DNA from: Octopus vulgaris
Taxonomy: Eukaryota
Assembly (NCBI GenBank): GCA_951406725.2
Contig: OX597817.1
Coordinates: forward strand, 105,524,001-105,588,000
Direction: 5' to 3'
Length of the DNA stretch: 64,000 bases
The first letter of the stretch is position 1. Each line of letters begins with the position of its first letter. The notes below the pieces were generated by a model. It ran no database searches, had not been told where the DNA came from, and saw only the letters and a program-made list of their open reading frames with translations. Shown here in pieces: positions 28,401 to 37,400 of this stretch. The position numbers were made by a program, and so were the translations under genes.

Positions 28401-31400
28401 CATACATACATACATGCATGCATACATACATATATACATATACATATACATACATATACATATGCATGCATCAGATATTTAAGAACAACATTTTAATTAA
28501 AGAAAAACAAAACTATTTATTAGTAGAACCAATATATCTTTAGAGAATTTGGTATACTTATTCTTACATACATGTAGCATAAGGCTGTTCAATATAACTG
28601 CCATCAACCTTGATTACTGCCTCGATACAACTTCTGAAATGACTAAATGTGTTGATTGGGTGATCTTTATTCATGTTAGTCATAATGATCCCAATAGCAG
28701 GCATGTTTAGTGGTTTCCACCACTCATCAATGACCTAGACATAGTAGTCTTGGGAGTTTAAATCAGAAGAGCTAGAAGGCCAAATGTTAGGAGTAAGATG
28801 ATTATCAATTCCTTTGGCCATTTACTCCTGGGCCATGCAGGCTGTGTGAGAGAGAGCAGAGTCTTGCTGGAACATATATGGCCTTCCCTGACCAACTGTC
28901 TCGATCCAGGACTTGACAATCATCTGCATTGACAGCCATCTCACACTGACCCTAAGCAGTGAAGAAGCATGATATGGCCCTTATTGCTCACAACCATCAA
29001 GACCATCACAGACAATGAAAACTTGGTATGCATAACAGTGGAGATTTCAGTGAGGCTGGTCCAGAGTCATCTGTCATTTCTCCTGTTCACTGTTTGATCT
29101 TGGACAAAATTCTTCTCATCTGAAAAAAAACCCCAGCACATGTCAGGCTCCTTGGGGAGCTTCGGTTTGTTCAGCAAGCACTTTGATTCGATCACTCAGT
29201 TCTCCCAGGTCTTTTCGGACATGAACTCCCCTCTTCTGAAAACATAGGATTTGTACCTGACATCTTCATACACCATATGTCTAATTGTTGACTCTGACAC
29301 ATGGGGATAATTGGCAATGGCCTTCATTGACTTGCCATGAGTCTTGTTCATGATGCCCAGATTTGCTGGACAAACTTGACTTTTCTGACAATGTCTGGCT
29401 ACTAAGAATATTTATTTTTTGTCTTTTATTTTGGCCACAGAAGACATATGCCTACCAAAGGTCAGGAGCTCTGTTCTGATCTTAAACATGAAAGACCCAA
29501 CAACATTTAAGAAGGCTGTAGTCTCAAAATTACTGTGGTTGATGGCTAATACTACAAGAATAACACGCCTTTCATCCTCTGGGTTAAATCCAATTCTTCT
29601 TCCATGTTGGGGCTGCAAAAAGAGAGGACATTTAGTTAAAGCTTGGGCGACTTATGGTTCTTAAACATTTTTGTTCTCAAACATCTAGCTCTCCCTGTGC
29701 ATACATATATGATGACGACGACGACGACGACCATCATCATCATCATCATCATCATCACTTAACGTCCATTTTCCATGCTGGCATGAGTTGGACGGTTTGG
29801 CACGAGCTGACCAGTTGAAGGTCTGTTTGGGCTCCATGTCTGTTTTGGCATGGTTTCTATGACTGGATGCCTTTCCTAACACTAACCACTTTACAGAGTG
29901 TACTGGGTGCTTTTAAACAGCATCAGCATGGATGCTTTTTATGTGGCATCAGCACCTACAAGACTGCTATATCAGGGATGCTCAGCTGGAAAGGGTTGCA
30001 GGGAATGAGCCTGTATGCAAGGACAACCATGTTTTTACTTAGATTGGTGTGTTTTTAAAGAACACAGCAAACCATCAAGAGTCTCAGTCCCCTGTCATCC
30101 CCTCTGAGTCCCAACATCTGTAGATCTTTTCTCACCACATCTTCCTAGGTCTACCCCTTCCACATGTTCCCTCTACAATTAGAGATCGGCACCTCATCTC
30201 TTGATGCAACTGTTTCCGTTCATATATATATATATATCCCTTCAGCATATATATATATATTCCTTCAGCATATATATATATATATATATATGTATATGTA
30301 AAAAAATACAAACTGGGACAAGAACGCAAAACATTTAGAAGACGATACAAAAAACACGGACGGGACATTCGAAGCCTTCAATCTTCAGTCACGAACTGGA
30401 TCATCCTCGCAATTTCGGCTGATTAATCTTGATCCCTTTAGCATCTAAACTGGCCATAACTGGTCCAAATATTTTTCTTGTTTTATGTTCAAACTGGCCA
30501 GATCTGGCCTTCACATATCCTACAATATTCTAAAAATAAATAATCCCAAACAATATGAACTGATAATCATTACATTTGACAAAATAATCTGAGAAAGAGA
30601 GAAAGAGAGAGAGAGAGAGAGACACACACACACCTTTGTATCTGTACATGCATACTTACAACATTATTGAATTTGAGTTAATCAGTTAATTATAAACTCT
30701 TTTTAATTTTTTTGCAGCACAGTCATCTTGTCCTGGTAAGTTGAATGTATTTATTATTATTATTATTATATTAATCATCCATAAAATTCTATATAATTTT
30801 TCTCTCCACTTTCTGTTTTTTGATTAAAAGAAACAACCCTGAAACTCTCTGCTTGCTATATTCATGAACAACATGTAACTCAAAGCTTGATCTTGTGACA
30901 CATGTCAAATGTCAAGCCTAAAAACTTTGATTGACCTCTTGTGAATTATATGACAGTAAATTTCCATATGAAGAATGCTATCTACAGACTTTGTATGTAT
31001 CAAAAAAGATAATCATTACTTTATATGCTTATGAATGGCTTCCTCATATGCTAATATGATCACCATATGCTAATCATTTATTTCATGTAGCTCTAATCAT
31101 GAACCTTCCATCTGACCATCTTTGCTTGTAAGATTGTGTGATTAGAGTCCTCAGGCATTTCCTACATAAGGTTCTATCAGAAGCAATAGTTATTACACTC
31201 TCCAGTTGGATTTCCAGTTGTGACCAACATTCTTGGTCTACCCACTAGGTTTCCTGCCAGCCAGCTTGGCTTAAAATAATCCATCTTGTAATTCTTTCCT
31301 GTGACATTCTAGTCACATGTCTGTTGTACCAGAGCTGTGACTTCTCAATGCAGAGAAGTAGCAACTCAACCTGAAGAAAATCTCTGATCTCCAAGTTATG

Positions 31401-34400: not shown

Positions 34401-37400
34401 TTTGTTTTTGGTTAGTAAGTGTTATTTCCTATTTGCTTCCATTTTGAAATCAACTTTGCTTTTGCGACCTGGACATCAATGTTTTGAAACTGACCTATTT
34501 TCCTTTACATTTCAGACAGATTCAGCACTGAGTTGCTGAATTAGGAATATTGTTATAGCGAATATTCTGCTCAATACCACAGATTTGCTTGTTAGTTGCT
34601 TGACCATAACCATTTGATCATGCTCCTTAGTGGCTGACAATATGTGCATCTCTGATCAAAAGTGCATAGCTCATTGGTTAGAGCTTCGGGCTCACAATCA
34701 TAAGGTAGTGAGTTTGATTCCCAGACTGGGTTGTGTGTTGTGTTTCTTGAGTAGCTTGTTGCTCCAGTTCACTCATCTGTAGAAATGAGTTGCAATGTCA
34801 CTGGAGTCAAGCTGTATCAACTTTTACCTTTCCCTTGGATATCACCAGTGGCATAGAGAGGAGAGGCTGCTGGTCTTCCACAAAAACAACCTTGCCCAGA
34901 CTTGTGCCTCAGAGGGTAACTTTGTAGGTGCAATCCCATGGTCATTCATGAGCAAGAGTAATGGGGGAGCATCATAGCCATGTGTTGAGAGACATTCTTT
35001 AGGGTTTGAATAAATGTAACAAAAGCAAACTTTGAAGGAAATATTTTTCATAGTTTCTATGGGTAAGCAGATAGGAAGTAACAGTTGACACTTAGGGATA
35101 AAAGTTGTATTACACAGTGTTATTTGTATGTATAAGTGTCTGTAGCCACTCTACAACCTTTTTGTAGAGTATGAAAGGAGGATTGTGATGTTGACATGTA
35201 TCACCTGCTGACCTACCACACACATACACACACACACACACACACACACATGAGAGAGAGAGAGAGAGAGAGAGAGAGAGAGAGAGAGAGAGAGAGAGTA
35301 TTCCTTTGGATACATCATAATCAATTTTAGTGAGGTATTTTTCAGCTAAAGGACTCAACAGATATATCTGTACATATGCGTACCATATGACTTCACATGC
35401 ATACTCATAATAATGCCATTTTATTGAATTTAAGTAATATTATTCTTTGTTTCTTTCTCTTTCAGCACAAAGGCAAATTATATGTAACGGTAAGTTAAAT
35501 GTATATTTATTACTATATTATTGTTCATGAACTTGTGCCATTTCTCTCTCTCCCTCTCCTCCTCTCTCTCTCTTCTTATTATGCATCAACTGAAAGGTGG
35601 TGAGCTAACAGAATAGTTAGCATGCTATGAAGGCGGCGAGCTGGCAGAATCGTTAGCATGCCGGGTGAAATGCTTAGCGGTATTTCATCTGCCGTTACGT
35701 TCTGAGTTCAAATTCCGCCGAGGTCGATTTTGCCTTTCATCCTTTTGGGATTGTTAAATAAAGTACTAGTTATGCACTGGGGTCGATGTAATCGACTTAA
35801 TCCCTATGTCTATCCTTATTTGTCCCCTCTATGTTTAGCCCCTTGTGGGCAATAAATAAATAAGAATAGTCAGCATGCCAAACAAAATATTGAGTGCTAT
35901 TTCAGCCATCCTTACCTTCTGAATTCAGATTCTGCCAAGGTCAGTTTTGCCTTTCATCCTTTTGGGGTCAATAAAATAAGTATCAGTTGATCACTGGGTG
36001 CAGAGTGTCAGTGTAATCAATTAACCTCTTTTCCGACCAAAATTTCCCTATAGTAGAAGGGGATTATTATGCATCAATTCAATGAAATTAAATGAAAAAA
36101 GCCCATAACACTATATCCATGATATTATATTCATGAACAATGTATAATTCAAACCAAGATCTTGTAATAAATGTTAGGGCTAACAATTTTTGCCAACCAC
36201 CCCATGATGACTCTACGCATTCTTTATACAGAGACACATTCTTTATACACAGTTTTACATTTCAAGAGTATAATTCATTCCATAGGCACCATATGGTTCT
36301 GCGTTCAATCCCACTGTGTGGCACCTTGGACAAGTGTCTTCTACTATATCCCCAGGCTGACCAAAGCCTTGTGAGTAGATTTGGTAAACAGAAACTACCA
36401 ATTCTGACCCTCCGCAAAATCCCAAATTTTGGCACGTAAAAAGCACCCACTACACTCACGGAGTGGTTGGCGTTAGGAAGGGCATCCAGCCATAGAAACA
36501 CTGCCAGATTTGACTGGGCCTGATGAAGCCTTCTGGCTTCACAGACACCAGTAGAACCGTCCAACCCATGCTAGCATGGAAAACGGACGCTAAACGATGA
36601 TGATGATGATGATGATGATGCTTTGTGGGAGCAACTGTTTTATCGAAAGCGTATATTGTTGTTAAATGCTCGAAATATGAGACTAGAAAAACAGCCAACA
36701 ACTGATGAAGGGTCGTTTGTTTTGTTTTCCATTTGTGTCTTTCGTTGTTCGAAAGAATAGTTCATGTTCCATGTACTTGAGCTTCATATCTTTTTGTTGT
36801 ACACATTATGTGATGTCCTGTGCCCACATATGCATATATATATATATAGATGTAAGTATGTACATATACGTAAGTATATATGCATATATATATATATATA
36901 TATATACATACATACACGCACACGTATATATATATATATATATATATATATATACATACATACACGCACACGTATATATATATATATATATATATATATA
37001 TATATATATATATATATATATATATATACATACACATAAATATACAAAGTATGGGGGTTTAGTTCATAAGTGTTCTAAATGATTAGGTATGCTAGGTTAG
37101 TGCTGTAATGGATTACTAGGGCTCCAGTGTTATAACTGAGATGGTAGTTATGGATCCATTGCAGATTTCCAATGCAGCGGATATATAATTGTTAAAGAGG
37201 ACAGCAAACATTAAGATAAGGCAAATATCTCAAGTCATATACAATATTATTATTGGAAAAAATTCAAAGTCTTACAGCTGTTTCTGGGATATCCTTGAGT
37301 ATGGGATATTCCATCTTCAGAGACAAATATGGAAAATGAGAATGGTATATATTAATGAGATGACCACATAGAGGAAGGGAGTAAAAGAATAAGGAGATGG

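Follow-up and report, generated by a model that had tools for sequence, protein, structure and literature searches.

Three tandem-duplicated one-cysteine microexons at the tip of an octopus adhesion receptor, probably spliced in together

When three very short paralogous exons lie side by side in one reading frame, are they alternatives among which splicing chooses, or are they all built into the same protein? The question is raised by a stretch of 64,000 nucleotides of the Octopus vulgaris genome (assembly GCA_951406725.2, contig OX597817.1, positions 105,524,001 to 105,588,000 of the forward strand; hereafter the window, in whose numbering all coordinates are given), where the gene of an adhesion G protein-coupled receptor (GPCR) carries microexons of 18, 21 and 24 nt, each coding for one cysteine, as its coding exons 2-4. 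A first-pass annotation of this DNA read them as cassette exons or a mutually exclusive array by which the receptor varies its N-terminus. That proposal is not supported: microexons 2 and 3 are joined in series with exon 5 and all five gene models that cover the region contain the three microexons. We consider it likely that all of these tandem-duplicated cysteine microexons normally enter the transcript together, which would add 21 residues and three cysteines at the receptor's tip.

The exact spliced alignment of the O. vulgaris protein P0001, which fits 29 exons without a mismatch, separated by GT-AG introns, places the exons concerned as follows.

25400..25491, forward strand: first coding exon, ATG at 25416, ending in phase 1; N-terminus as in the O. 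sinensis protein P0003
30718..30735, forward strand: microexon 1, 18 nt, phase 1/1, AQSSCP, exact spliced match to P0001
32521..32541, forward strand: microexon 2, 21 nt, phase 1/1, VEESDCN, exact spliced match to P0001
35466..35489, forward strand: microexon 3, 24 nt, phase 1/1, AQRQIICN, exact spliced match to P0001
42545..42715, forward strand: coding exon 5, 171 nt, phase 1/1, three cysteines

Positions, phases and peptides of the microexons agree with the first-pass annotation, as do the cysteine count of exon 5, the TGT-NNN-G ending followed by a GTAAGTT donor, and the homologous intron flanks; each microexon is preceded by a pyrimidine tract and an AG acceptor. The extended donor GGTAAGTT[GA]AAT has three matches on both strands of the window, at the microexon donors only, and among the seven candidates from a loose microexon scan of the window cysteine is found in these three alone. 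Because the copies are in phase 1/1 and their lengths are divisible by three, stacked copies keep the frame. Scored with a matrix from the gene's other sites, the donors reach 9.1-11.6 (gene range 2.1-13.5) and the acceptors of microexons 1, 2 and 3 reach 13.4, 6.8 and 14.0 (gene range 5.3-15.4), so that two of the three exons, having strong acceptors, do not look weak or dependent on a regulator. The introns between the microexons measure 1785 and 2924 nt, and the flanking introns 1.8-7 kb.

Four of the 24 listed sequencing runs, from four studies, were placed on 571 nt around exon 5, all as assembled contigs. In each of the four, exon 5 is covered end to end by one contig that is spliced at both exon ends (2995 nt at depth 47.6, 275 nt at 2.9, 2941 nt at 30.2, and 1443 nt at 21.7). 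The contigs of runs X1 and X8 (2995 and 2941 nt), which come from two studies, continue unbroken through the junction: the 30 letters upstream of exon 5 are the last 7 nt of microexon 2 and microexon 3, and downstream follows exon 6 (45896). Microexons 2 and 3 are spliced in series with exon 5. The run X3 contig offers only five upstream letters, and the 239 upstream letters of the run X11 contig lie outside the view. Neither skipping nor any other junction at exon 5 occurs among the junctions listed for the four runs, and none of those listed bridges the other microexons, rare forms being dropped from contigs. As loose ends are read for 30 letters only, microexon 1 is not seen directly in the RNA contigs.

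Gene models extend the picture to all three exons. Of six proteins in two octopus clusters, one begins far downstream and five cover the microexon region: those of O. vulgaris and O. sinensis, the O. bimaculoides isoforms X1 and X2, and also a UniRef fragment. All five, from three species, carry the three peptides in order, those of O. sinensis being the same as in O. vulgaris and those of O. bimaculoides reading AQSSCL-DDEPNCN-AQEEIVCK. All three exons predate the split of O. bimaculoides from O. vulgaris and O. sinensis. No annotated isoform without a microexon exists among the five models, and it is unlikely that exons of 18-24 nt with no homolog outside would have entered four annotations without transcript support. 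Since the window gene equals the public model CAI9721574.1 letter for letter, the three microexons were already in public annotation. The first-pass annotation had itself named joint inclusion of all three as the case that leaves a duplication and no diversity; contigs and models give this as the main form, and minor skipping lies beyond the reach of the contigs.

How the three exons arose can still be read from their introns. A one-cysteine exon was duplicated twice in tandem together with its intron flanks, which upholds the proposal that a whole intron-exon-intron unit was copied. In a 264-kb stretch (the window and 200 kb downstream), unit 2 aligns with unit 3 (32478-32641 and 35424-35593) at 74.6% over 173 nt (E 1e-20), and unit 1 with unit 2 (30728-30826 and 32534-32628) at 72% over 101 nt (E 1e-6). 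Two collinear downstream blocks add to these, one between units 1 and 3 (30857-30905 and 36126-36174, 80% over 49 nt) and one between units 1 and 2 (30958-30992 and 32745-32778, 86% over 35 nt); no additional unit copy was found within the 264 kb. Splice sites are intact in all three units, and intron identity has decayed to 60-78%. Units 2 and 3 are the most similar pair in the upstream flank and around the donor (78%), a closeness that the distal block does not show (60/71/68%). A fixed-window test separates the units from background more weakly than alignment does: the downstream flanks score 44, 26 and 58 against a mean of 21.6 (standard deviation 8.8, maximum 133) in 375 background exon-flank pairs of the gene, and the upstream flanks 22, 32 and 29 against a mean of 16.1 and a maximum of 27. 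On the window, a generic repeat finder is dominated by microsatellites and does not show the units, and Tandem Repeats Finder reports simple repeats only. A genome DNA search with unit 2 returned only unit 2 itself and missed the known sister units; it is therefore insensitive and no evidence of uniqueness, and a pattern search was used instead.

The pattern TATATTCATGAACAA-N14-22-GATCTTGT has exactly three matches in the 2.8-Gb genome (at 30857, 32675 and 36126 of the window), and its reversed control has none. Being unique to these three units genome-wide, this bipartite motif points to local duplication and not to a dispersed repeat. Its copies, and an insertion that has displaced one of them, lie as follows.

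30857..30896, forward strand: first copy of the intron motif (TATATTCATGAACAA...GATCTTGT), 121 nt downstream of donor 1, a candidate inclusion enhancer
32675..32713, forward strand: second copy of the motif, 133 nt downstream of donor 2
36126..36165, forward strand: third copy of the motif, displaced by the insertion to 636 nt downstream of donor 3
35576..36077, no strand assigned: insertion of dispersed-repeat sequence in unit 3, about 470 nt between 14-nt direct repeats

Within the introns a 15-nt block is identical in all three units, in an alignment where 115 of 214 gap-free columns are invariant. Permutation of the gap-free columns gives such an invariant run a P of about 0.006, a post hoc value from three sequences that replaces an earlier permutation (0 of 20000) inflated by gap columns. 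Selection may have kept the block as an inclusion enhancer to which a protein binds, or it may have survived by chance. As a general microexon element of the genome it was rejected: the 15-mer has 34 matches genome-wide against 22 for its reversed control, and of the 30 loci examined among these 34, only the present three have a microexon-like candidate at most 700 nt upstream. Pairing of the proximal TTCATGAA with the distal motif in a hairpin was rejected as well, a palindrome accounting for it and folding being no better than that of shuffles; no stable structure was detected around the block in any of four stretches (fold z -0.43 to 0.91 against shuffles).

The unit 3 insertion is flanked by the 14-nt direct repeat TTATTATGCATCAA (35576-35589 and 36064-36077), which looks like a target-site duplication, and holds two internal repeat copies (35646-35781 and 35863-35998) that are 74% identical; it is younger than the unit duplication. 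Elsewhere, intron 1 contains a local direct duplication (27094-27183 and 27356-27445, spaced by 262 nt, 83% over 90 nt) in which no exon-like core was noticed. Farther upstream, at about 10900-14250, lies a decayed element that we take to be LTR-retrotransposon-like (LTR, long terminal repeat): similar sequences near 10910 and 13970 were noted by eye, positions 12001-13000 being outside the view, and between them are reverse-transcriptase- and integrase-like fragments with stops.

Past the end of the window the receptor gene runs on for about 25 kb, as far as exon 29, and this part encodes the GPS and the seven-transmembrane (7TM) region; inside the window the remaining coding exons are these.

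45896..63388, forward strand: coding exons 6-14, rest of the N-terminal domain, stalk, and start of the GAIN-type region

Residues 8-24 form a hydrophobic, signal-peptide-like segment, as judged from hydrophobicity, and the placement of the microexons behind the signal-peptide exon of a cell-surface receptor, claimed at first pass, is borne out. By its GPS and secretin-type 7TM region the host gene classes as an adhesion GPCR: Pfam 7tm_2 (PF00002) matches at E 1.5e-36, with 126 bits against a cut-off of 20.6, and Pfam GPS (PF01825) at E 6.3e-12 before the first transmembrane helix (TM1); no Pfam match to an adhesion domain exceeds its cut-off. The GPS sequence is CVCTHL/TSFAILM, where the slash marks the presumed cleavage point of the consensus. 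About 510 residues precede TM1; no Pfam GAIN match was obtained at E<=1, and the AlphaFold full-length model has a predicted local distance difference test score (pLDDT) of 30.5. A query with exon 5 returned two proteins, P0001 of O. vulgaris (100%) and P0002 of O. bimaculoides (77%).

The NCBI name of P0001 is "adhesion GPCR L4-like", and the public models CAI9721574.1, XP_029634696.1, XP_014769618.1 and XP_052823013.1 are named "ADGRL4-like". The N-termini of latrophilin/ADGRL receptors carry lectin, olfactomedin, hormone-receptor or EGF domains. None of these occurs among the Pfam hits of P0003 and P0005 at E<=1, and by domain content the gene is not of latrophilin type, which leaves the "L4-like" name unbacked. 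No close paralog was found in the genome with two exons as probes: other matches to the GPS exon are 42-55% identical, and exon 6 has no second match below E 0.7. The two O. bimaculoides isoforms, P0002 (X2) and P0005 (X1), differ in the C-terminal tail at the last exon junction (SFDWSRD and SVDNL...GIW, respectively) and are identical in microexon use. The gene also has a fourth very short coding exon (57056-57075, forward strand, 20 nt, GSPVTDK), asymmetric in phase (1/0), without cysteine and without homology to the three units, and a 49-nt coding exon (53258-53306, forward strand) whose donor, GTTCGT, is weak (score 3.5). An octopus-specific expansion of adhesion GPCRs is reported in the portion of PMC6408891 consulted; literature searches over titles and the openings of abstracts, in a collection with few subscription papers, found nothing on this gene or its microexons, although the GPCR tables of PMC6408891 may include the gene.

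The N-terminal domain, to which the microexons contribute, has no Pfam match, and a HMMER search of 1.84 billion representatives gave four hits, two of them named octopod records; as far as these searches reach, the domain is lineage-restricted. P0025, a repetitive protein with seven stretches, and P0024, an 89-residue fragment, were dropped as uninformative, and the Argonauta fragments P0007 and P0023 stop short of the microexon region. Between O. bimaculoides and O. sinensis all 14 cysteines of the domain stand at matching positions, and the microexon residues are identical at 5 of 6, 3 of 7 and 5 of 8 positions (13 of 21 in total). The cysteine count is even with one or three microexons and odd with none or two. 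The distant full-length homologs P0008 and P0009 (37-38% identity overall) have the N-terminal domain as well, with z of 6.6-12 against shuffles, and are about 12 residues shorter at the microexon region. In multiple alignments their start falls where microexon 3 lies, and the C-x8-C spacing into exon 5 is preserved; before this pattern, which corresponds to microexon 3 plus exon 5, P0008 has one cysteine and P0009 two. A start at microexon 3 suggests an ancestor with one cysteine, to which two cysteines forming a new disulfide were added. The two homologs differ at residue 28, beside the putative signal cleavage site, where P0008 has Y and P0009 has C; the number of tip cysteines varies outside octopus.

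Structure prediction adds little for this domain, whose AlphaFold model has a pLDDT of 40.5, below 50 for residues 1-172. Only one N-terminal part, residues about 190-262 of P0003 (exons 49741-53306), is modelled with confidence (pLDDT about 70). It folds as a beta-sandwich, and cadherin repeats make up most of its top matches, which are weak (best VIA-align Z 4.5, Foldseek E above 0.18); a degenerate cadherin- or immunoglobulin-like module is a possible lead. Foldseek gave no match at E<=0.001, and the best feature score in the ESM Atlas, 0.82, came with a TM-score under 0.5 and serves as a lead only.

Taken together, the likely course of events would be this. Duplication of the unit carried along a few hundred nt of intron, and the copies then diverged to their present level of identity, the frame being kept as they were stacked. 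Serial inclusion, observed for microexons 2 and 3, would extend to microexon 1 on the strength of the gene models. Recognition would rest on the GTAAGT donors and the pyrimidine tracts, perhaps aided by the invariant intron block. The single ancestral cysteine would pair within the cysteine-rich N-terminal domain, and the two added ones would form one new disulfide, with the domain count staying even at 14; such a count would explain why three copies persist rather than two. Like others of its family, the receptor would cleave itself at the GPS (HL/TSFAILM) and signal through the exposed TSFAILM when the N-terminal region is engaged; the extension would be a constant change to the end that faces the ligand, with no switching involved.

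Several points weigh against joint inclusion and the added disulfide. The status of the runs as RNA is a guess of the tool and not on record, tissues are not given, upstream letters were seen for two of the four runs, with 17 loose ends and 41 pieces outside the view, and contigs drop rare variants, so that low-level or tissue-limited skipping escapes them. Microexon 1 is known from protein models only, these models are annotations, usually of major forms, and the acceptor score of microexon 2 is below the median. As to the ancestor, the first 50 mature residues align at chance in three of four pairs (z 0.35-0.58), the fourth aligns (z 4.0) but in another register, the second cysteine of P0009 weakens the case for a one-cysteine ancestor, and both AlphaFold predictions are unusable over the microexon segment (pLDDT 20-38). 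N-terminal splice variation is, moreover, common in mammalian adhesion GPCRs according to the excerpts of PMC6667449 used here. Cassette use beside the full form, in which some tissues skip a subset and most plausibly two exons at once, would produce receptors with either a long or a short tip, comparable to Gpr126, whose ectodomain is controlled by splicing, and a paired skip would keep the cysteine count even. The exons suit it, being symmetric and of lengths divisible by three, as do the intron block invariant in three copies, the weaker acceptor of microexon 2, and vertebrate adhesion GPCR ectodomain splicing, common and functional in what was seen of PMC6667449 and PMC6954182. With no skip junction listed in any of the four runs, no microexon-lacking isoform among the five models, and X1 and X8 contigs continuous through the junction, we nevertheless regard it as rather unlikely. 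A regulated two-state switch, where the co-duplicated 15-nt element drives joint inclusion and some tissue skips two copies together, seems distinctly unlikely. If it existed, a paired skip would cost the receptor exactly one disulfide and bring back its short ancestral tip with one cysteine, and the locus would be a cassette of microexons constrained by cysteine parity and born by local duplication in a lineage-restricted adhesion GPCR domain; tissue-specific paired skipping would mean that, in a cephalopod adhesion receptor, the disulfides of the tip are determined by splicing.

An array of the Dscam type, with one microexon per transcript, fits paralogous exons of one frame and similar lengths, and one of three also gives an even cysteine count; yet contigs of two studies carry a junction between microexons 2 and 3, which refutes it as the main mode, and the five models have all three exons. 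A search for perfect complements and the folding of four stretches showed no clear pairing of the docking/selector type, the longest complements being 10-14 nt and mostly of low complexity and the fold z-scores those given above; introns of 1785 and 2924 nt leave room to splice both exons. We hold it to be highly improbable. Neutral duplication, by contrast, is compatible with serial inclusion and competes only with the step of the new disulfide: the extra copies would be tolerated filler at an unstructured tip, and their cysteines would have no structural role. The fast divergence of the non-cysteine residues between species (13 of 21 identical) and the lack of a usable structure model for the region speak for it, but the three cysteines and the three exon lengths are kept across species and the splice sites are intact in spite of decayed introns, so that we give it a small but real chance. 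Serial inclusion of all three microexons stays our preferred account.

Tandem exon duplication with joint inclusion is likely an ordinary outcome of exon duplication, here in exons that public models already held. Its value lies in being traceable: a receptor ectodomain has grown by tandem duplication of 18-24 nt exons whose intron homology is still readable. It cautions against reading alternative use into a Dscam-like genomic layout, and it provides a small natural test of microexon inclusion, since the same invariant intron block accompanies all three copies and an insertion has carried one of the blocks about 500 nt away.

Known systems set this locus in perspective. Like Dscam and the exons of the human atlas of mutually exclusive exons (PMC5740500, in the part seen), the octopus microexons are neighbouring paralogs of one frame and similar lengths with homologous introns. 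According to the criteria in that part of the atlas, an in-frame junction between two candidates rejects mutual exclusion, and the microexon 2-3 junction of runs X1 and X8 therefore fails them; coding for 6-8 residues, the exons also fall below its 10-residue prediction limit. The schistosome micro-exon genes, as described in the excerpts of PMC4350168, similarly have very small symmetric exons after a signal peptide, but they are coded mostly by small exons, whereas here these make up 63 of 2583 coding nt and 3 of 29 exons; the host is a mollusc 7TM receptor, and no pool of splice variants was seen in contigs or models. Adhesion GPCRs with splice-controlled ectodomains, such as Gpr126/ADGRG6, likewise have short in-frame exons for their extracellular part, in what was seen of PMC6954182 and of the catalogue PMC6667449; those are alternative, while the octopus exons appear to be included together and come from local duplication of a cysteine exon. 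Neural microexons of the eMIC/SRRM4 program, going by the sections of PMC8797185 at hand, are likewise under 30 nt, and two of the three octopus exons have TGC beside the acceptor AG (as TGCAG), but here two of the three acceptors are strong and the flanking introns span 1.8-7 kb. With the adhesion GPCR family the receptor shares a GPS and a 7tm_2 domain above the Pfam cut-offs, and what sets the gene apart is its N-terminal domain, which matches no Pfam family.

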